Positions 1 through 64,000 of a stretch of 64,000 nucleotides of DNA are shown piece by piece. The notes beneath the pieces were generated by a model. The model searched no databases, had not been told where the DNA came from, and worked only from the letters and a program-made list of their open reading frames with translations. Both the position numbers and the translations under genes were made by a program. Each line of letters starts with the position of its first letter. Position 1 is the first letter of the stretch. The DNA is from an uncultured Prolixibacteraceae bacterium (GTDB lineage Bacteria > Bacteroidota > Bacteroidia > Bacteroidales > Prolixibacteraceae): NCBI GenBank assembly GCA_963849985.1, contig CAWKJY010000029.1, positions 140,114-204,113 of the forward strand, in the 5' to 3' direction.

Positions 1-657
1 TGAGTCAAAATCATCATTGACAACCCGGTATTTTCCACCAGTAACTTTTCTTCCAATTTGCAAACCCCACGGTTTTGAAAGCAAATAGGCTGAACCGTTA
101 TTAATTCGGATATTAGGGGAATATAAAATCAAAACATCAACATATTCCGGAAAATCTGCCGCCAGTTTTAACGCCAATGTTCCCCCGGTTGAAGTGCTCA
201 TAATAATTACTTTCTTCCCCAGTCCCCGGGCAATCATCAAAGCTTTTTTTGCTGATCCCCAAAGCCTGTCCGGAGTCATATCAATTAAAGGATCATCGGT
301 AACAATTCCGTGAGACGCCAACCGCGGGAAATAAGCATTAAACCCAAAATGTTTCGCAAACTCAACGTTTGCGGGATAACCTTCGTACCAGGATGCAGAA
401 AACCCATGTAAATAAAGTAGACAGTATTCGGTTCGTTCTTTAATGCTGTCATTAGCCCAAATAATCCTTGATTCATTATCCGGCTTGATATCAAGTCCTT
501 TATCATTGTCTTCCACATATTGTTCCATGCTTGAGATACTTGCTGAAAGCGATGGTAAATCCTTTGATAGTTTTGCCGGTTCGGGTTTTGGACCCATAAT
601 ATAAACCACAATAACAAGCAAAAATAATATCATTAAATAGCGACGGAACTTTTTCAT
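1..657 (-). CDS. Alpha/beta-hydrolase (lipase/esterase-like) with N-terminal membrane anchor; 3' end lies outside the window
   Basis: Manual translation from ATG at 657: MKKFRRYLMILFLLVIVVYIMGPKP...LYLHGFSAS...IIMSTSTGGTLAL. It has an HGF oxyanion motif and an S-T-S-T-G-G nucleophile elbow. The frame is open to position 1 and is absent from the ORF track, presumably because no stop lies in the window. Confidence 0.85.
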   Translation of the reverse strand, partial: MKKFRRYLMILFLLVIVVYIMGPKPEPAKLSKDLPSLSASISSMEQYVEDNDKGLDIKPDNESRIIWANDSIKERTEYCLLYLHGFSASWYEGYPANVEFAKHFGFNAYFPRLASHGIVTDDPLIDMTPDRLWGSAKKALMIARGLGKKVIIMSTSTGGTLALKLAADFPEYVDVLILYSPNIRINNGSAYLLSKPWGLQIGRKVTGGKYRVVNDDFDS

Positions 658-744
658 TTCGACTGATTTTAAGGCTGAAAATTACAATTTAATTTTGCCT
701 CATCAAAAGTATATATTCGATGAATTGTCAAATCTTTAAAAGAA

Positions 745-1192: not shown

Positions 1193-2998
1193 ATGACTAT
1201 TGATGGATTTATAGTTATAGGAATAATTGTTCTGACCATCGTAGCCCTTGCGAAAGAGATCATGCGACCGGGGTTGATCTTTTTTACCGCAGCTGTTTTG
1301 CTTATGGCTCTTGGAATTCTTTCCGGCAACGATGTTCTGGCTGGATTTTCCAATAAAGGAATGATAACAATTGGTATCCTTTTTATTGTTAGTGAGGGCG
1401 TCCGTCAATCAGGTATTTTGAACAGGTTAGCGCAATCTTATCTTCCGCGCAAAAGAGGAAAAATGGTTTTTCTGATTCCAAGAATTATGTTTCCCGTGTC
1501 GGTTTTATCTGCTTTTCTAAATAACACCCCGGTAGTAATAATATTTGCTCCAATAATAAAAAATTGGGCCGAAAAGCTAAATTTATCTTCAAAAAAATTC
1601 CTCATCCCATTATCTTATGCGACCATTTTAGGCGGCATGTGCACTTTAATCGGAACGTCTACAAATCTTGTTGTACACGGTTTAATTCTTGAATCGGGGT
1701 TGCAAGGATTTGGAATGTTCGAACTTGGAAAAGTTGGAATAATCATTGCCATAATGGGTACAATATACATGTCACTTGCAGGAAATAAACTTTTGCCAGG
1801 TGAAAAAATCTTATTAAAACAAAAAAGTACCACCGATTATAAAGATTATTATTACGATATCATTATTCCTGAAACGAGTAATTTAATTGGTCTTGAAATT
1901 AAAAATGGCCGGATCAGGGAACTGAAAAACCTGATCATAAAAAGTATTGAACGGGACAATAACATTATTGAAACACAAAAAGGAAGTTTTTTTATCAACG
2001 GGAACGACAAATTGCACATGGCGGGGAAATCTGACCGTCTCAATTACATTTTATCAAATGATAATATAAAACTTAGTGGGATTGACTTACTAAATAATAT
2101 CCCAAAAAAAGAACTTAAACAATATGAAGCCGTTATCTCGCCCCGTTTTCCGGGTGTTGGAAAAACAGTTCCTGAATTTAATTTTTACGATCATTATCAG
2201 GCCGTTGTAATTGCAGTCCATCGAAATGGCGAACACATCACTTCCAACTTAGGAAATCTAAAATTGAAGGCCGGTGACAACCTTGTTTTACTGACAACTG
2301 AACGTTTTATTCAAAACTGGGGCGATTCTAAGATTTTTTATTTAACATCTTATATTCGTGATTACCGTACTACAGGTTCATTCTGGAAAAAATGGCTGGC
2401 ATTTATAATTCTTTTAGTGATGATTGTGGGATCAACTATTGGAAAATTTATCAGTTCGCCCGCAGGTATCAGTTTCGATATGTTTTACTTTTCTGCCATA
2501 GCCGCAACCCTATTGGTTTGGATGAAAATCATGCCCCATCAAAAATATACAAAAGCTATAAGTTGGGATGTTCTGATTACCATTGCCTGTGCATTTGCTA
2601 TAAGTAAAGCGTTACAAAATTCAGGTGCGGCAGAATCTATTGCAAGTACAACTATTAATCTTAGTAAATCACTTGGTTCGTTAGGAGTTCTTGCATCGAT
2701 ATATATTATTACGGCAATTTTTACAGAAATTATTACAAATAATGCAGCTGCGGCTATTGTTTTCCCAATTGCACTTGCTGCAGCAAATCAATTGCATATC
2801 GACCCAAAACCGTTTTTTGTTGCAATTGCTATTGCCGCATCAGCAAGTTTTTCAACGCCTATCGGATATCAAACCAATCTAATAGTACAAGCATACGGAA
2901 ACTATCGTTTTAAAGATTACCTAAAGATTGGTCTTCCTTTAAATTTACTGGCATTCATTTTATCGCTATTATTTATCCCTCTTTTCTGGCATTTTTAG
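1193..2998 (+). CDS. SLC13/DASS-family permease with TrkA-C domains (probable sulfate/anion transporter)
   Basis: Multi-TM protein with SAFLNNTPVV, GTSTNLVV, TEIITNNAAA and TPIGYQTNL motifs, a central soluble TrkA-C region, and position directly upstream of cysD. Confidence 0.88.
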   Translation: MTIDGFIVIGIIVLTIVALAKEIMRPGLIFFTAAVLLMALGILSGNDVLAGFSNKGMITIGILFIVSEGVRQSGILNRLAQSYLPRKRGKMVFLIPRIMFPVSVLSAFLNNTPVVIIFAPIIKNWAEKLNLSSKKFLIPLSYATILGGMCTLIGTSTNLVVHGLILESGLQGFGMFELGKVGIIIAIMGTIYMSLAGNKLLPGEKILLKQKSTTDYKDYYYDIIIPETSNLIGLEIKNGRIRELKNLIIKSIERDNNIIETQKGSFFINGNDKLHMAGKSDRLNYILSNDNIKLSGIDLLNNIPKKELKQYEAVISPRFPGVGKTVPEFNFYDHYQAVVIAVHRNGEHITSNLGNLKLKAGDNLVLLTTERFIQNWGDSKIFYLTSYIRDYRTTGSFWKKWLAFIILLVMIVGSTIGKFISSPAGISFDMFYFSAIAATLLVWMKIMPHQKYTKAISWDVLITIACAFAISKALQNSGAAESIASTTINLSKSLGSLGVLASIYIITAIFTEIITNNAAAAIVFPIALAAANQLHIDPKPFFVAIAIAASASFSTPIGYQTNLIVQAYGNYRFKDYLKIGLPLNLLAFILSLLFIPLFWHF

Positions 2999-3063
2999 GG
3001 TTATTTTTTGATGAACAAATTTTCCTTCTATCACGATTCCGTAATGGGTTGAAAGAAAAATCT

Positions 3064-3071
3064 TATCTTTG
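3064..3071 (+). promoter_or_regulatory. TAnnTTTG -7 promoter element upstream of cysD
   Basis: TATCTTTG followed by CAC, about 40 nt before the ATG. Confidence 0.55.
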
Positions 3072-3112
3072 CACTCCGAAATAAAGTTAAAAAGACGCAA
3101 AAGTTTTTTTTC

Positions 3113-4021
3113 ATGAAAGATTATTCATTAAGTAATTTACGGGAACTTGAAGCAGAAGCAATCCACATCATTCGTGAAGTAGCTGCAGAGTTTGAAAATC
3201 CTGTAATGCTCTATTCAATAGGAAAAGATTCTTCGGTAATGGTTCGTTTAGCTGAAAAAGCTTTTTACCCTGGTAAAGTTCCATTCCCGCTCATGCATAT
3301 TGATTCCAAATGGAAATTTCGGGAAATGATTGAATTCCGTGATAATTATGCCCGTGAAAAAGGCTGGGACCTGATCGTTCATTACAATAAGGAAGGATAC
3401 GAACAAGGAATCGGACCATTTACACATGGAAGTAAAGTGCATACAGATGTAATGAAAACTCAGGCCTTGCTTGCCGGACTCAACAAGTATAAGTTCGATG
3501 CAGCTTTTGGAGGCGCCCGGCGCGACGAGGAAAAATCGCGGGCAAAAGAACGTATCTTTTCTTTCCGTGACCGCTTTCACCAGTGGGATCCTAAAAATCA
3601 GCGCCCTGAGCTTTGGAATATTTACAACGCCAGAGTACAGAAAGGTGAGTCAATTCGGGTTTTTCCCATTTCGAACTGGACAGAGCTTGATATCTGGCAG
3701 TATATTAGATTGGAAAATATTCCAATTGTTCCATTATATTTTGCAAAAGAACGACCAATTGTGAATATGGACGGAAATCTTATTATGGTGGATGATGAGC
3801 GTATGCCAAAAGAAATTGCGAAAAAAGCCGAAATGAAGATGGTTCGTTTTCGCACATTAGGCTGTTATCCATTAACTGGAGCCGTTGAATCAGAAGCCGA
3901 TACCATTGAAAAAATCGTGGAAGAAATGATGACAGTTACTGTTTCTGAAAGAACGACACGCGTGATTGACTTCGACCAGGAAGCAAGTATGGAACAAAAG
4001 AAAAGGGAAGGATATTTTTAA
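3113..4021 (+). CDS. cysD: Sulfate adenylyltransferase subunit 2
   Basis: [12 protein letters not shown]-loop, [35 protein letters not shown]-terminus. Confidence 0.97.
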
Positions 4022-4044
4022 AATTCGATTCTAATTATTTTAGT

Positions 4045-4120
4045 GTCATTTCAAGAGAGGTACGAACGAGAAATCTCATTTTCCCGAAACAGATTTCTCC
4101 TCCATAGTCATCGAAATGAC
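4045..4120. repeat. Nested inverted repeat, REP/REPIN-like palindromic element
   Basis: Outer arms GTCATTTC (4045-4052)/GAAATGAC (4113-4120); inner arms GAGAAATCT (4068-4076)/AGATTTCTC (4091-4099). Confidence 0.6.
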
Positions 4121-4136
4121 TGCAAATTAAACGAAG

Positions 4137-6112
4137 ATGAGTAGCAACAATAACAGCGATAAATTTAACGGAAATTCGTCTCCAACAGGAACACAAAAAG
4201 GGGGCCTGGATATCCTCGAATTCCTTAAATCAGGACCAGAAAAAAGATTTACTTCGATTATTAACTGCAGGTCAGTGTAGATGATGGGAAATCAACACTG
4301 ATCGGACGTTTAATGTACGACAGTAAAATGTTGTACGAAGATCAACTGGCTGCTCTTGAACGCGATAGTAAACGTGTTGGCCATGCCGGAGAAGATATTG
4401 ATTATGCACTTTTACTTGATGGATTAAAAGCTGAACGTGAACAGGGAATAACCATTGATGTTGCATACCGTTATTTTTCAACTGCTAAAAGAAAATTTAT
4501 TATTGCTGACACACCCGGACATGAACAGTACACACGTAATATGATCACCGGTGGTTCAACAGCCAACCTGGCAATTATTCTTATTGATGCCCGTTACGGT
4601 GTAATAACTCAAACCAAACGGCACACCTATTTAGCCAACTTACTGGGAATAAAACATATCGTTGTTGCTATCAACAAAATGGATTTGGTTGACTTCAGCA
4701 ACGATGTTTTTGAAAAGATACGCAAAGACTACGAAAATTTTGTTGCACAACTTGACGTTCCCGATGTTCGTTTTATCCCAATTTCGGCATTAAAGGGTGA
4801 CAATGTCGTTGAAACTTCTGATCGTATGCCATGGTATCACGGACCTTCAATGCTTGAATTCCTGGAAACGGTTCACATTAGCAGCGACCGAAATTTTACA
4901 GATCTGCGTTATCCGGTTCAATATGTTTTACGCCCCGATATTAAATTTCGAGGTTTTTCAACTTCAGTTGCTTCGGGCATTATTACAAAAGGCGATGAAG
5001 TAATGGTACTCCCCTCTTTAAAAAAGTCGAAAGTAAAATCAATTGAAACCTACGATGGTGAACTGGAATATGCTTATCCTCCACAATCGGTAACAGTTAC
5101 ACTTGAAGACGAAATTGATATTTCACGAGGTGACATGCTGGTTCATCCTGACAATTTACCAAGAATTGAACGCCAGTTTGAAGCCATGCTTGTTTGGATG
5201 GATGAAACGCCCATGAATCTTTCCACACAGTTTTATATCAAACAGGCTAATAATAACACAAAAGCCCGTATCGATCAGGTAAAATACAAAGTTGATGTAA
5301 ATACGCTGGAAAAACACAGCATTGAAAAGTTCAGTTTAAATGAAATAGGGCGTGTGGTAATAACTACTACGAAACCACTGTTTTTCGACCCATATAAAAA
5401 GAACAAACAAACCGGTTCATTTATTCTGATCGATCCGGTAACTCATAATACCTGTGCAGTTGGAATGATCATCGATAGGTTAGAAAGTAAAAACCTTCCA
5501 TCGAGAATCACAGATACCGACCGTGAAAAAATTGCCCAGGGAAAATCACTGATTCAACAAACTGAATATCAACAAAAATATAACCAGAAAGGTGAAACAA
5601 TCTGGATAACCGGACTACATGGTTCTGGTAAAAATGAATTAGCTTTTAGTTTAGAGAAAAAACTCTTTGAAAACGGGGCCGTTGCTGTTTTAATTGACGG
5701 AAGTTCGGTTCGCTCAGGACTAAACCGGGAACTTGATTTTTCACCTGCTGACCGGGCAGAAAACCTTCGACGGGTAGCGCATATTTGCCGTCTTCTTAAC
5801 GATCAAGGTATAATTACGGTATGTTCATTTATATCCCGTAACAACTCTCTGCGTGAGCAGATTGCTGAAATCATTGGCAAAGACCGATTCCATCTGGTTT
5901 ATATGGAGGCATCACTTGAATATTGTAAAAAGAATAAGCCGGAATTGTATGAAATGGTCGAACAAGGAAAAACAAAAGATCTTCCCGGGGTTGATCTGGA
6001 ATATGATGCACCAACTGATGCAATGTTGATTTTTAAACCGGAAGAGAACGAGCGAAACCTGGATGCTATTTTGGATTATCTGGCAGCAAATAAAATTTTT
6101 CCTGTACATTAA
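4137..6112 (+). CDS. cysN: Sulfate adenylyltransferase subunit 1 (GTPase) fused to a C-terminal APS-kinase-like domain; two apparent +1 indels near 4228 and 4272
   Basis: Joining frames gives MSSNN...[38 protein letters not shown], then [17 protein letters not shown] and NKMD. The C-terminal region starting ITGLHGSGK is CysC-like. Confidence 0.92.
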
Positions 6113-8041: not shown

Positions 8042-8130
8042 ACACTATACTACTTACAGAAATATTATCCGTCTTTGGTACTATACTATTACTGATAGTT
8101 TTTATTCGCAAAGGTGAATGAATAAAAAAA

Positions 8131-8537
8131 GGCAGGCCTGTAAGCCGGGTTCTGTAAACTCCCGAAATAAATCGAAAGCTTCTTTATCATTTATCTTGTC
8201 ACAGCATCACTGCCGTGATCCTGCAGCCTACCCCTCCTGACTTCCTTGTGCAAGAAGCAAAGCGAGCTACTTTGCTGTACCGCAACAGCGGCAAACAATC
8301 AGGATATACATGGCTTTGCAACCCGTGAGACGTACGGCTGATGATGTTGCCACCACCACCGGTGCGCTTTTACCGCACCTTTTCACCCGTTCCCCAAAAT
8401 GGTCTCGCCAAATCAAGGTGGTTATTTTCTGTTACGTTGCTATCCCCTTTCAAAGATCTTCCCGTTAAGAAGCACGGTGCCCTGCGTTGCCCGGACTTTC
8501 CTCTCTCGATAAATCGGGAGCGATAAAGCGGCCTGCC
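8131..8537 (-). ncRNA. rnpB: RNase P RNA (bacterial type A)
   Basis: The minus strand has the P1 helix GGCAGGCC.../...GGCCTGCC, GAGGAAAGTCCGGGC, TGAAAAGGTGCGGTAAAAGCGCACC and ACAGAACCCGGCTTACAGG. TATTTTTG promoter element at 8542-8549. Confidence 0.95.
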
Positions 8538-8565
8538 GGTGCAAAAATACGAATTAGTTACGAGT

Positions 8566-59566: not shown

Positions 59567-61547
59567 ATGAAAAATCAAGTTAGCAAATTCAGGTGGGTTC
59601 TTATCGTTGTTTTGCTTGGGATATTTGCCCCGTTTATCTTTTCCTTTACTGAGAAAACAGAGGAAGAAACGCCCGGAGTAGCCGTTTTGTTGGTTGATAC
59701 TGACCGGTCGATGGGAAAAATCAGCAAAAACATTTACGGCCAGTTTCTGGAACACATTAACCACTCAGTTGTTGACGGGTTATATGCAGAACAGGTTCGC
59801 GGACAGGGTTTTGAAGGAAGAGATTTCAATAATTACTGGAAATCATTTGCAGAAAACGGGAATGTAACCCTTGAGAATATAGATTTCAAAAATGGCGAAA
59901 AGAGTACGCGCATTGAAGTAAACAACGGGACCGCAGGAATTCGGCAAGACAGGTTTTATCTTGAAAAAGGGCACGAATACAACGGTTCGGTTTGGCTAAA
60001 ACCAGTGCAAAAAACCGTTTCTGTTTCATTAATTGTAAAAGATGCTGAAGGCAACACTATTGCTGAAAAAGCACTAAAAACTTCAGGCAGCGAATGGCAG
60101 GAAATCCGCTACTCTTTTACGGCTGACAAAACCGATACTCAGGCTTACATTGAGATTTCAGTAACCGGCAACGGCGCTGTTTTGGTTGATTTTATTTCAT
60201 TGATGCGTGCAGATGTTCGTGCAAACGGAAAGTTTCGTCCCGATTTATTTAAGGCGCTCGATGATTTGAAACCGGCATTTATCCGCTGGCCGGGTGGTTC
60301 TTATGCATCTATTTATAAGTGGAAAGACGGAATCGGACCGCAGGTTTCCAGGAAATATCATCCAAACGAAATTTGGGGTGGTTATTCCGATTATTACGGG
60401 TTTGGTACTGAAGAATATATGGAGCTTTGTCAAAAACTGGGCGCCGATCCTTTGGTAGTGCTTCCGGCTGTAACTACAAATCCCGAAGATGTGGAATACG
60501 CCATCGACTGGGTACATTACCTGCTTGACCCGGCCACTACGGAATGGGGACAAAAACGTGCTGCAAACGGGCATCCGGAACCTTATAACGTTCCTTACAT
60601 TCAAATTGATAACGAACCGATGAACCACGAACTTTCGCCCGACCAGTACGCTGAAATTGTAAATGTTTACGGGAGCCGGATACGCAAAATTGCCCCGGAA
60701 GTAAAAATTATTGCCTGTGGGCAAAAACGTTCAAACGATATGAACTGGAGCGAAAAGCTTGTGGATATTGCCGGTGATAATTTCGATATTTTGGGTTGTC
60801 ACAATTATGAATATGAACCCGACAAATACCAAACCGGCGTGCGAAGAATTGAAGAGTACCTGGTTAAGCTGAGAAATTACATCTTAAAATCCGGTCATCC
60901 CGATATTAAAATTGCCATTTTGGAGTGGAACCTCAGCAGAACTTACGACTGGCGTGCCGGAATGCATGCTGCCGGAAGTTTAATCAGTTATGAAAAACTG
61001 GGGCCTGAACTGGAATTTAGCTGTCCGGCGCTGCTGATGCGAAATACCAGCGACGATCCAACCTGGACGGCGTGGATTTACCACGATCATGTTTCATGGT
61101 TTCCGGGTGGTGGCTATATTGTTGAGAAATTGTTCCGCGAACATTTTGCCGAAATCCAGTATGCAACTACTTCCGGTACATTTCGGGAGGTGGAAGATCC
61201 ATTTAAAAACTTTATTGATGGTATTTCGCAGTTTAAACCCGAAGACTGGCGCCCCGGCACCGTTGATGCCATTGCAACCGGAAGCGCCGATGGAAAAAGG
61301 ATTGTTATCAAAGCGGTGAATTATGAAGGCATTAATAACACGCTGATTACACGAATTCAGGGTTCAAAAGTGCCAGAAAATGCCACAGTAAAAATTTATA
61401 CGGTTAAAGCTGATAGAGAGGAAAAAGCCTCACTAAAAGACGCCGGACAAAATAAAACCGGCAGAGTCAACAATACCTTACACAAAAGACATGAAAATAG
61501 AACTGGCGCCTTATTCGGTTATGATTGTGGAAATTATGGCCAATTAG
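59567..61547 (+). CDS. GH51-like glycoside hydrolase with carbohydrate-binding-like insertion; +1 indel near 61450 (true stop probably 61545-61547)
   Basis: IYGQFLEH, IRWPGG, IDNEP, ILEWN. The corrected C-terminus reads IKPAESTIPYTKDMKIELAPYSVMIVEIMAN*. Confidence 0.82.
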
Positions 61548-61835
61548 ATGATTTTTTAGCCGGATTTTTTAAATTTGTTATCGGAAGCCCAGTGACACTC
61601 AGAAAGAACCGCAGCGATGGACGCCACCCCAGGATTTCAGAAATATAGTGTATATTAAACAAATAATGAAAGGTTCTTTTTACAATACAATTTTATTGGA
61701 AATAACACCTTTTGTTATTCATATAGAAAAAATAATAGGAATAAAAGTTTTATTACACATACGTTGGCATTAATACGGAACGAATTTTGATATTTCAATA
61801 AAATGTATTTACTTTGTAATAACATTTAAGAAATT

Positions 61836-62081
61836 ATGGAAACATCAATAATCAAAATCGGAAATTCAAAAGGGCTTCGTTTGAGCAAGACCATTTTGGA
61901 AAAATATAACATCAAGGACAAAGTGGAACTTATTCTTGAAAAAGGACAAATAATCCTCAAACCAATTGCTCTACCGAGAAAAAATTGGGAAAAGGAATTT
62001 AAAAAAATGAGTGAAAACGGAGACGACAAGTTGCTTATGAACGATGTTTTCGAGGACGAAAATCTTGAGGAATGGATTTAA
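61836..62081 (+). CDS. AbrB/MazE/SpoVT-type antitoxin
   Basis: IIKIGNSKGLRLSK N-terminal motif, acidic C-terminus; overlaps the toxin start. Confidence 0.92.
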   Translation: METSIIKIGNSKGLRLSKTILEKYNIKDKVELILEKGQIILKPIALPRKNWEKEFKKMSENGDDKLLMNDVFEDENLEEWI

Positions 62082-62395
62082 AACAATACTCAATTGTTCT
62101 TGTCAATCTTGACCCGACCATTGGAAGCGAAATAAAAAAGACTAGACCTTGTGTAATCATTTCACCAAATGAAATGAACAAGTATCTGAACACGATAGTT
62201 CTTGCTCCAATGACAACTAATCTAAAAAAATACCCAACTAGAGTTTCGGTCAAACACAACGGGAAAAAAGGAATGGTTGCAATTGACCAAATTCGGACAG
62301 TTGACAAAACCAGAATAATCCGAGTTTTTGAAAACCTAACCGAAACGGAAATTGGAAAATGCAAAGAAGTAATAAAAGAAACCTTTGTTGACTAA
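62072..62395 (+). CDS. PemK/MazF family endoribonuclease toxin
   Basis: VNLDPTIGSEIKKTRPCVIISP, APMTT, DQIRTVDKTR. Confidence 0.93.
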   Translation: MDLKQYSIVLVNLDPTIGSEIKKTRPCVIISPNEMNKYLNTIVLAPMTTNLKKYPTRVSVKHNGKKGMVAIDQIRTVDKTRIIRVFENLTETEIGKCKEVIKETFVD

Positions 62396-62407
62396 AAAAA
62401 CAAGTAC

Positions 62408-62543
62408 TAATGCCAACAATGGCTATAAGTAATTGCTTGTTCTCGCCTACTTCTGAAAATCCTAGCGGATTTTCAGTTCGGTGTGTACTTGCAAAGTTAA
62501 GTGATAACCCACGCAACTACTCATAGCCGAGACCGTTAGCTGC
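62408..62543 (+). other. attC-like recombination site
   Basis: GCCAAC...GGCTATAAGTAATTGC (62421-62436) / GCAACTACTCATAGCC (62513-62528)...GTTAGC, with an internal hairpin CTGAAAATCC-TAGC-GGATTTTCAG (62453-62476). Confidence 0.65.
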
Positions 62544-62929
62544 ATGGCAAAACCCCTAGTCCTCATTCTAAAAGGACTTCAGACGTACAAGCAAGAGTTG
62601 AATCCTTTGTAAACACGTTCCGCAAAATTCAATATCAGTCTGAAATCCATAATGCGGAAAGAGTCTGCAAAGATAAAACTCAGAGACATCAAGCAAATTT
62701 TAAAGTCACATTTGAAGCTTGAAAACCGGTAACTCCAAATGAATCTTCAGCTTAGTTTGATGGTTTTGTTTAGAACAATGTGTGAATTATGTAATTTTTT
62801 TTGATAATTGTGTAAGACCAGTTTCGAAAATAAATTACAATTTAAGCTGAATTTATTATGTGAAAACTAACGACTAATATCCAGGCTAGTAAACACTATT
62901 CCTGTAAGAGCATGATTCAATAAAATTCA

Positions 62930-64000
62930 ATGAAAAAGGCAGAAGACAAATTTTTCAATAAATATCTTCCCAAGTCTCCGACAGGAATTCAGGGGTTTGA
63001 TGAAATAACCTCCGGTGGATTACCTAAAGGCAGACCCACCCTGGTATGTGGTGGGGCAGGCTGCGGGAAAACACTTTTTGGAATAGAGTTCCTGGTACGC
63101 GGAGCAACTCAGTTTAACGAACCGGGTGTTTTAATGTCATTCGAAGAAACTAATGAGGAATTAATCATAAATGTAACTTCCCTGGGTTTTGATCTTGAAG
63201 ATCTTATTAAAAATAAAAAAATAGCACTTGATCATGTTCATATTGAGCGTAGTGAAATAGAAGAGACCGGTGAATACGATTTAGAGGGATTATTTATACG
63301 ACTTGGTTATGCTATTGATTCAATCGGAGCAAAGCGCGTTGTATTAGATACAATTGAATCACTGTTTGCCGGATTGCCAAACCAACTTATCTTACGTGCC
63401 GAACTACGCCGCTTGTTTCGCTGGTTAAAAGATAAGGGTGTTACTGCAATTATAACAGGTGAGCGTGGAGAAGAAACACTTACCAGGCAAGGTCTGGAAG
63501 AATATGTTTCTGATTGTGTTATTATGCTCGATCACCGGGTAAATGAACAGACGTCTACACGTCGTTTACGTGTTGTTAAGTATCGTGGTTCAATACATGG
63601 TACTAATGAGTATCCGTTTCTTATTGATGAAAATGGAGTTTCGGTGTTACCTGTGACTTCATTAGGATTAAAACATATTGTTTCAAATAAAAGGATATCA
63701 AGTGGAATAAAAAAACTTGATGAAATGCTTGAAGGAAAGGGTTATTACCGCGGTAGTACTATTCTTGTTTCCGGTACTTCGGGGGTAGGAAAAACCAGTA
63801 TATCAGCTCACTTTGCCGAGGCAGCATGTAAACGGGGTGAACGTGTACTGTATTTCTGTTTTGAAGAATCACCAAATCAGTTAATGCGTAATATGCTCTC
63901 TATCGGAATTAAATTGGAACCCTGGGTAAAAAACGGGCTGTTACAAATCCATGCAACCCGTCCGACATTTTACGGTCTGGAAATGCATCTTGCTAAAACG
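62930..64000 (+). CDS. kaiC: Circadian clock ATPase KaiC homolog (partial, runs off the window)
   Basis: Manual translation: PTGIQGFDEITSGGLPKGRPTLVCGGAGCGKT, SFEET, RVVLDTIESLF, EEYVSDCVI.LDHR, KYRGS.HGTNEYPF; second P-loop GTSGVGKT, FEESP. Absent from the ORF track. Confidence 0.93.
   Translation, partial: MKKAEDKFFNKYLPKSPTGIQGFDEITSGGLPKGRPTLVCGGAGCGKTLFGIEFLVRGATQFNEPGVLMSFEETNEELIINVTSLGFDLEDLIKNKKIALDHVHIERSEIEETGEYDLEGLFIRLGYAIDSIGAKRVVLDTIESLFAGLPNQLILRAELRRLFRWLKDKGVTAIITGERGEETLTRQGLEEYVSDCVIMLDHRVNEQTSTRRLRVVKYRGSIHGTNEYPFLIDENGVSVLPVTSLGLKHIVSNKRISSGIKKLDEMLEGKGYYRGSTILVSGTSGVGKTSISAHFAEAACKRGERVLYFCFEESPNQLMRNMLSIGIKLEPWVKNGLLQIHATRPTFYGLEMHLAKT

Follow-up and report, generated by a model that had tools for sequence, protein, structure and literature searches.

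Within the 64,000-nt stretch analysed here (the window; positions 140,114 to 204,113 of contig CAWKJY010000029.1, from an uncultured Prolixibacteraceae bacterium), positions 61764-62535 very likely constitute an integron-type mobile cassette, made up of a mazEF toxin-antitoxin pair and a 131-nt attC-like site and probably inserted at a genomic GTT by a recombinase acting in trans. We compare it to a SALIN (single attC site lacking an integron integrase) because the cassette is alone, with no second site and no recombinase in the 64 kb. The toxin-antitoxin pair itself is ordinary. The cassette belongs to an integron-like variant system rather than among canonical integron cassettes, because the recombinase that heads the related arrays is not IntI and the sites lack conserved extrahelical bases. 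We tentatively suggest that this system, with its XerA-like integrase, which lacks the IntI I2-type insertion and shares the orientation of the array, its Cys-rich partner and its attC hairpins devoid of extrahelical bases, is widespread in Bacteroidota (Cytophagales, Flavobacteriales, Marinilabiliales), and that it could be an independent invention of the integron or lie near the transition from Xer to IntI. It is apparently uncharacterised in the literature we searched. The features of the cassette are as follows, with a slash marking the crossover point.

61763..61772, plus strand: left junction G/TTGGCATTA, with crossover between 61763 and 61764; homology with nine other contexts starts here
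61764..62535, plus strand: gene cassette of 772 nt, comprising leader, mazE, mazF and the attC site through the G of R'
61773..61835, plus strand: leader upstream of mazE, which travels with the cassette and is conserved along with the genes (93-98%) in other contexts
61836..62081, plus strand: mazE-like antitoxin of 81 aa with an AbrB/MazE/SpoVT-type N-terminus
62072..62395, plus strand: mazF toxin of 107 aa, PemK/MazF endoribonuclease family (Pfam PF02452, PemK_toxin, E 4.3e-28)
62404..62543, minus strand: attC-type recombination site; the bottom strand is the one modelled and presumably the one recombined
62411..62417, plus strand: R'' box TGCCAAC, agreeing with the consensus RYYYAAC at 5/7 positions, then a 3-nt spacer AAT (62418-62420)
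62421..62436, plus strand: L'' arm GGCTATAAGTAATTGC of the 16-bp stem, pairing with 62513-62528
62437-62512: variable central part, containing a 10-bp hairpin
62453..62476, plus strand: inner hairpin CTGAAAATCC-TAGC-GGATTTTCAG
62513..62528, plus strand: L' arm GCAACTACTCATAGCC, then a 6-nt spacer GAGACC (62529-62534)
62535..62541, plus strand: R' box G/TTAGCT, agreeing with the consensus GTTRRRY at 6/7 positions; the cassette ends with the G, and TTAGCT is part of the target or next unit

An initial annotation of this DNA had described the gene pair as bracketed by a short inverted repeat whose right copy opens a long fold-back, and we confirm this in its coordinates, its distance from the toxin gene, its pairing arms and its fold z-scores. 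GTTGGCATTA (61763-61772) and its exact reverse complement TAATGCCAAC (62408-62417) flank mazE and mazF and are the sole two exact copies in 64 kb; the second begins 13 nt past the last base of the mazF stop codon, and the repeat extends to 13/14 nt (61763-61776 and 62404-62417). By itself the 10-nt repeat does not exceed what chance would give: 61400-63000, an AT-rich 1.6 kb, has six exact 10-nt inverted-repeat pairs, and dinucleotide shuffles have 4.1 on average. What makes the site significant is its covariation and how it compares with other loci, rather than the repeat. The annotation had further proposed that the cassette follows the integron rule, by which its 5' end is complementary to its own R'' and a GTT stands at its 3' end. 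This holds: the 5' end, TTGGCATTA, matches the complement of its own R'' (TAATGCCAA) at 10/10 positions, extending to 13/14, and the same complementarity recurs in cassettes of locus L001, Persicobacter plasmid pPP2, Paracrocinitomix and Flagellimonas (comparison loci are labelled L001-L140, and metagenome runs X). GC content is 0.29-0.37 in the cassette versus 0.40-0.50 in the neighbouring genes. To judge from the predicted proteins, the two genes, which overlap by 10 nt, have the layout of a type II MazEF toxin-antitoxin pair. Matches for the mazE product are weak (Pfam MazE_antitoxin, E 0.0034, below cut-off; TIGR02609, E 5e-5), and the mazF product matches NCBIfam MazF with E 5e-14, under the equivalog cut-off. 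The leader presumably carries the cassette's own promoter and operator.

The mobility of the unit is apparent from the company it keeps. The same mazEF recurs at 93-98% nucleotide identity in over 15 unrelated contigs, six further metagenome contigs encode the exact MazF protein amid other neighbours, and the exact MazE protein is recorded in 110 blocks of a public collection. Across these contexts the pair always carries its boundary motif, in keeping with the suggested mobile cassette with toxin-antitoxin cargo, and in L116-L123 the upstream cassettes differ. In most contexts whose sequence reaches that far, homology starts at 61762-61764; in L002 it extends about 9 nt further, and L120 differs. 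The proposed limits of about 61764-62535 fit these data, with the left breakpoint falling at G/TT in nine contexts. L006 has ATTGGC where the window has GTTGGC, so the junction lies between 61763 and the TT, as expected for a G/TT crossover. What lies to the left in other contexts is a further structured site's 3' end (...GAGACC G, ...AAAAC G).

On the right-hand side, the contexts are more varied. L120 carries mazEF with a complete site of the window's type, in which the inner hairpin has the compensatory variant GGAAATTCC and GGAATTTCC, and L005 has a diverged site with compensatory changes in the long stem. In L001, L004, L116 and L118-L124, mazEF is followed by GCCAAC-AATGGTAACC-GTTGCAC, a 26-nt site devoid of an interior, which fuses the genes to a short unit that has no open reading frame (ORF) and carries its own complementary ends (L001, 5429-5600; L116, 6986-7320). 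L006 has a similar short site at about 756-800, and its contig stops before the next unit is complete. The sites of L002 (1303-1444) and L007 (785-925) are partial hybrids with a window-type 5' arm, a 3' half of another type and unpaired arms, and could reflect true recombination or chimeric assembly at the conserved centre. An IS110-family (DEDD) gene stands directly after the ...CAACAA of R'' in L003 (about 530-1524) and L018 (474-1442), a further one lies inside the L116 array (1536-3125), and L117 has the same junction sequence of about 20 nt at about 3018-3040 with no gene. These IS110-family insertions at R'' resemble the targeting of IS1111-attC elements.

Two of these loci show other arrangements. 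In L117 (a contig of GCA_018883545.1, 2236-3040), mazEF is preceded by an attC of the window's type that overlaps the stop codon of a penicillin-amidase gene, and it has R'' alone downstream; this could be the same circle opened at R'' rather than R', or two cassettes with the second site disrupted. We considered a crossover at R'', meaning top-strand recombination, as the general cause of the differing attC interiors and largely set it aside, because most cases are interior-deleted 26-nt sites, IS110 insertions or possibly chimeric hybrids; it may still apply to L117. In L001, a parDE module and its attC site (3899-4678) are inverted relative to the remaining array, and the inverted segment is bracketed by a 15-nt inverted repeat (TTGTGCAACAGGCAC and GTGCCTGTTGCACAA).

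The recombination site has most of the anatomy of an attC. Its span from R'' to R' is 131 nt, within the attC range of 57-141 nt, and GCCAAC (62412-62417) faces GTTAGC (62535-62540) in the fold-back. Fold z-scores against shuffles are -5.4 for the bottom strand and -3.2 for the top strand. The bottom-strand preference expected of attC is present both in the constrained attC-like fold (-23.1 kcal/mol on the bottom strand versus -17.9 on the top) and in the score of our covariance model R1 (135 bits, E 7e-27, for the minus strand, as opposed to 16 bits for the plus strand). Stem asymmetry arises from two conserved G.T pairs and an internal loop of 5-6 versus 3 nt. The conserved extrahelical bases by which the bottom-strand L box of an attC directs the choice of strand are absent, there being no bulged base in the window's stem, and no Rfam family matched the site.

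Covariation indicates that the stem is maintained, in line with the second paired box (L''/L') of attC sites, which is kept as structure and not as sequence. In an alignment of 14 sequences (bottom strands from different contigs, independently aligned), 84% of L-stem cells pair, against 28-50% over the whole structure in a control with slid partners, and 11 of the 16 L-stem pairs are compensatory. Among 33 model-fitted sequences, the pairing is 98.5%, with 12/16 pairs compensatory; AAC and GTT are invariant in these sites and bulged bases occur in only a few of them. The structure is seen on the bottom strand alone because two stem positions that are conserved G.T pairs there become A.C mismatches on the top, and RNAalifold predicted no structure from the top-strand alignment.

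The covariance model built from the 14-sequence alignment also bears on how common such sites are. A custom model of this kind had been suggested as a check, and it returned one credible site in the window, where the next best match (E 0.2) covers the interior only, and many elsewhere. Across 59 loci it found 75 sites in metagenome contigs, in arrays of 5-9 per contig, sitting between small ORFs; all but one are co-oriented with the genes, and the sole exception is the parDE-linked site of L001. Together with the 80 sites on pPP2, some of them 96% identical to the window's, these supply the similar sites that the cassette hypothesis called for; none of the three outcomes that the annotation had listed as refuting its idea was observed. 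In three soil and sediment metagenomes, the depth of 62414-62537 is 10-40x that of its flanks; metagenome contigs break at 62411-62414 and 62533-62539, and dozens of short contigs end at R boxes. The site is a high-copy repeat in runs X2, X3 and X8, which include soil and sediment metagenomes, where its flanks vary, and others labelled 'organism A'.

Among annotated plasmids, those of two cultured Bacteroidota carried the site at roughly 90% identity. On plasmid pPP2 of Persicobacter psychrovividus NBRC 101262 (NZ_AP025294.1), about 100 kb (approximately 302.6-403.5 kb; L130-L133) consists of small co-oriented genes, and three fetched stretches of this region, overlapping by a few kb, contain 80 model sites, whereas the first 45 kb of the record contain none. 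Several of these sites are 94-96% identical to that of the window. That the window's attC is of the type dominating the pPP2 array points to transfer between orders of Bacteroidota. The first pPP2 cassette starts ...CACACC G/TTGGCAAC and ends ...GTTGCCAAC AAT, and at the array head, on the same strand as the cassettes, stands an intact 379-aa tyrosine recombinase, which is missing from the plasmid's gene table because the gene spans the record origin (686..1 / 404592..404091). The arrangement recurs in Ancylomarina (Marinilabiliales), where the recombinase gene is followed by small ORFs separated by four model matches, and in the complete genome of Paracrocinitomix mangrovi, where it is followed by cassettes with uniform sites of about 165 nt, each starting G/TTAG..., ending ...CTAAC and having complementary ends. 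Three TARA contigs from three samples (L137, L138 and L139) share the recombinase and the genes upstream of it and differ in the genes downstream. Co-oriented arrays of variable content are found in relatives only. Flagellimonas marinaquae has a mobilizable plasmid (L140, NZ_CP092416.1, 2237-5145) on which a 272-aa xerA-type relative of the recombinase (44% identical, lacking the N-terminal extension) adjoins erm(F) and a DHFR-family cassette; an attC-like site lies on either side of the cassette, the second of them of window type. This plasmid looks like a mobile counterpart of the chromosomal arrays. A Tn3-family transposase follows on the same plasmid.

The recombinase of this cassette pool is probably an XerA-like enzyme of about 380 aa and not a canonical IntI, judging by its domain matches and alignment. 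The pPP2 protein passes the cut-off of NCBIfam NF040815 (XerA / "integron integrase"; 226 bits, cut-off 220) and falls below that of TIGR02249 (integron integrase; 198 bits, cut-off 265), with the latter match split in two; likewise, it aligns to PDB XerA 5hxy in one stretch (E 1e-45) and to IntI4 2a3v in two (E 1e-31). Alignment with IntI1 and XerD shows that it lacks the IntI-specific insert of about 40 residues and is longer at the N-terminus by about 100 residues. Bacteroidota commonly carry homologues of 375-390 aa. The initial annotation had expected an IntI-like tyrosine recombinase elsewhere: a tyrosine recombinase does head the arrays of cultured Bacteroidota, but it is XerA-like. The accompanying suggestion of a poorly described, lineage-specific system is borne out by the same arrays. 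The literature searched yielded no account of these Bacteroidota arrays or of this recombinase family in the role of array integrase, though one may exist elsewhere; the NCBI product name amounts to partial recognition of the family. That the XerA-like recombinase would act catalytically on these sites is suggested by its place at the array head. Divergently upstream of it, in four genomes of three orders, lies a gene for a Cys-rich, zinc-ribbon-like protein (C..C...RKFC...C) of 125-140 aa, conserved at blastp E 1e-18 to 1e-57. Its positions are:

L133, 709-1131: Cys-rich partner gene
L134, 9356-9733: Cys-rich partner gene
L135, 9508-9909: Cys-rich partner gene
L136, 9528-9920: Cys-rich partner gene

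The most likely route to the present arrangement would begin with excision of the cassette from an array as a circle. A site-specific tyrosine recombinase would then act on this circle in trans, the bottom strand of the site folding into the R box (AAC/GTT) and the 16-bp L stem, and a single crossover at G/TT would place the cassette in a secondary, attG-like genomic GTT. The empty site under this model would be 61763 joined to 62536, that is ...TTATTACACATACG/TTAGCTGCATGGC... (in shorter form ...CACATACG/TTAGCTGC...). Once inserted, a self-expressed MazEF may serve as an addiction or defence module and so counteract cassette loss. Within the 64-kb window there is one attC, no other att site and no integrase nearby, which is the configuration of a SALIN.

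Several observations weigh against this account. Searches of the window with Pfam and with XerD, IntI1 and Persicobacter recombinase queries found no tyrosine recombinase, and the Cys-rich partner gene was not found there either. Among 124 loci searched with XerD and IntI1 and then with the Persicobacter recombinase, no integrase was found, and Pfam searches of 30 candidate ORFs beside arrays returned cargo and IS110 genes only. The tie between the recombinase and the sites consists of array linkage in relatives. As to the site itself, the minimum-energy fold of the isolated strand (-26.2 kcal/mol) is more stable than the attC-like fold, and R'' departs from consensus at two positions and R' at one. 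The prediction that presence and absence breakpoints would map to GTT is upheld on the left in most contexts and needs qualifying on the right, where homology mostly ends just past R''; we attribute this to attC interiors that have been deleted, interrupted by insertion sequences (IS) or exchanged. Nor did the interval between the GH51 gene and kaiC, which had been proposed as the place to look, yield an empty site in relatives: around GH51 relatives (77-86% aa identity) the neighbours differ and none has kaiC or mazEF downstream, and around kaiC relatives (82-89% nucleotide identity) all upstream genes differ. Of the sequencing runs in the index, none contains the whole locus and none is conspecific, and only the cassette and the repeat are represented. 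Finally, the 13 nt left of the junction loosely resemble an attC end, and a decayed neighbouring site may lie there.

This last point leads to the main alternative, that the cassette is the last survivor of a decayed or deleted CALIN (a cluster of attC sites that has no integron integrase) upstream of kaiC and not a single secondary-site insertion. We consider this unlikely, though it deserves serious consideration. The 13 nt in question (TTATTACACATAC) match the L'-spacer end of family members at about 8-9/13 by eye, the region upstream of kaiC is variable and has other toxin-antitoxin modules in L125, and flanks of 214 nt to the left (61549-61762) and 64 nt to the right (62537-62600) match nothing in relatives. 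Yet no second attC was found upstream of the cassette even with the model's filters off (at most 3 bits near 61600-61770), the left flank is unfolded (z -0.28), and L125 has no sites of the window's family and a MazF just 49% identical to that of the cassette. It is very improbable that the shuffling or carriage of mazEF is due to IS110/IS1111-type DEDD recombinases using the R'' junction in place of a tyrosine recombinase. Such genes do lie directly after GCCAACAA in L003 and L018, another is in the L116 array and L117 shares the 20-nt junction, but insertion of IS1111-attC elements into attC is a known form of parasitism, the window has no IS, and the left boundary at the G/TT of the preceding attC would be left unexplained.

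The secondary-site reading also has to be set against two accounts that dispense with cassettes. A small non-autonomous transposon at 61763-62417 with 14-bp terminal inverted repeats, beside which the structured element would be a separate repeat, would account for homology with L001, L003, L004 and L006 ending at the outer edges of both repeat arms. We regard this as extremely improbable: there is no target-site duplication of the kind expected of a terminal-inverted-repeat transposon or miniature inverted-repeat transposable element, the left flank in every other context is the 3' end of an attC (...ACC G/TT), what comes after the right arm is invariably the interior of an attC, an attC that has been deleted or an IS, cassettes holding other genes have complementary end pairs of their own, and L120 has mazEF with a complete site. 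Next to no probability attaches to an ordinary resident toxin-antitoxin operon beside a chance palindrome or terminator with nothing mobile about it. Exact 10-nt inverted repeats are indeed expected by chance here, and some MazF homologues lack such a site (L010, 91%), but the site is 96% identical to array copies in another bacterial order, the same genes occur in many contexts and the stem covaries.

The likeness between this family and the integron cassettes and attC sites of class 1 integrons and of sedentary chromosomal integrons such as that of Vibrio cholerae (the V. cholerae repeat, VCR) extends from the single unit to the array. In both, an imperfect palindrome with ...AAC and G/TT... 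at its limits comes after an ORF, the cassette has a 5' end complementary to its own R'', a second paired box covaries and the bottom strand is favoured. The arrays of both have co-oriented sites that are alike within one array, a tyrosine recombinase at the head, variable content, cargo rich in toxin-antitoxin and defence genes, and IS110-type parasites of the sites. IS1111-attC elements are parasites that insert into attC sites, and the IS110-family genes of L003 and L018 share their fixed insertion point after ...CAACAA; they are parasites of the sites, not parts of the cassettes, and none is in the window. The differences lie in the machinery. The array recombinase here lacks the IntI-specific insertion, is closest to archaeal XerA, lies on the cassettes' strand, has an N-terminal extension of about 100 aa and is accompanied by a divergent Cys-rich partner that classical integrons do not have. 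In the L stem, a regular helix of 16 bp, there are two conserved G.T pairs, an internal loop of 5-6 versus 3 nt and no conserved bulges. The classical platform, an IntI with its additional domain beside attI and an array, is not what we observe. In the VchIntIA-VCR structure, the extra domain of IntI reportedly contacts the extrahelical bases, so the absence of the IntI insert and that of the extrahelical bases fit each other. With Xer/dif systems, integrative mobile elements exploiting Xer (IMEX) and pdif modules, the family shares an Xer-like recombinase, as its XerA 5hxy and NF040815 matches attest, but its sites are long hairpins of single-strand type in arrays rather than 28-bp double-stranded dif-like sites, and the recombinase is linked to the array and is presumably not the chromosomal dimer resolvase.

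Insertion of isolated cassettes at GWT genomic sites has been demonstrated in E. coli with IntI1 (Loot et al., bioRxiv 10.1101/2022.09.11.507474). The window shares with such SALIN/attG insertions one cassette, one attC, no nearby integrase, housekeeping flanks and a junction GTT that fits GWT; here, however, the host is a member of the Bacteroidota, the recombinase is presumed to be non-canonical and no empty site was seen. Toxin-antitoxin cassettes stabilise integron arrays (bioRxiv 10.1101/2024.07.02.601686), and those of chromosomal integrons likewise enclose a type II pair with its own leader. The cassette described here stands alone, and therefore has no array to stabilise. Integrons and CALINs have already been reported in Bacteroidota (PMC8618304, PMC9668308).

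The cassette lies between a frameshifted GH51 gene and kaiC, on what its gene relatives identify as a Prolixibacteraceae-like Bacteroidota chromosome. RNase P RNA (class A, 222 bits) at 8125-8539 and tRNA-Lys(TTT) at 776-851 of the window are ordinary chromosomal markers, the closest relatives of the GH51 gene among the genome contigs searched belong to Prolixibacteraceae and Draconibacterium metagenome-assembled genomes, and the named KaiC relatives are Bacteroidales. The GH51 gene, for an alpha-L-arabinofuranosidase, is frameshifted near 61440-61450, and its conserved C-terminus (...PDKIKPAESTIPYTKDMKIELAPYSVMIVEIMAN*) runs on in another frame, placing the true stop at 61546-61548 and not 61648; it is either a pseudogene or affected by a sequencing error. 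Judged by homology with L125 and L126, native sequence upstream of kaiC starts no later than 62601; closer relatives give 62758-62774 as the latest start.

A hairpin with 20-nt arms (62605-62672) lies inside a conserved stretch upstream of kaiC (62599-62742), and a second copy, 75% identical, is found downstream of the kaiBC cluster in L125 (9374-9525), where it overlaps a small minus-strand gene. In the same locus (KaiC 93%), positions 3200-5700 upstream of kaiC contain a different mazEF, whose MazF is the one at 49% identity, and a higBA pair; these modules are separated by other repeats (for example ...CCTGCTACCGnGACA...CAATGGGGCTG...), to which the covariance model gives no match. It seems that toxin-antitoxin modules have a hotspot upstream of kaiC.

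By itself, the window offers an isolated toxin-antitoxin cassette that is ordinary for integron biology and a clean natural example in Bacteroidota. Its value is that its recombination site leads to a platform with arrays of up to about 100 kb in cultured strains, and standard integron detection, which relies on the IntI-specific domain, would presumably miss the Xer-like recombinase of that platform. If the XerA-like enzyme does move these cassettes, this would bear on why cassette clusters are common in genomes that lack IntI, where such a system would explain many 'CALIN' arrays, and on the origin of integron integrases from Xer. It would also bear on the circulation of genes for defence and resistance in marine and sediment Bacteroidota, as the erm(F) gene on the Flagellimonas plasmid may illustrate.

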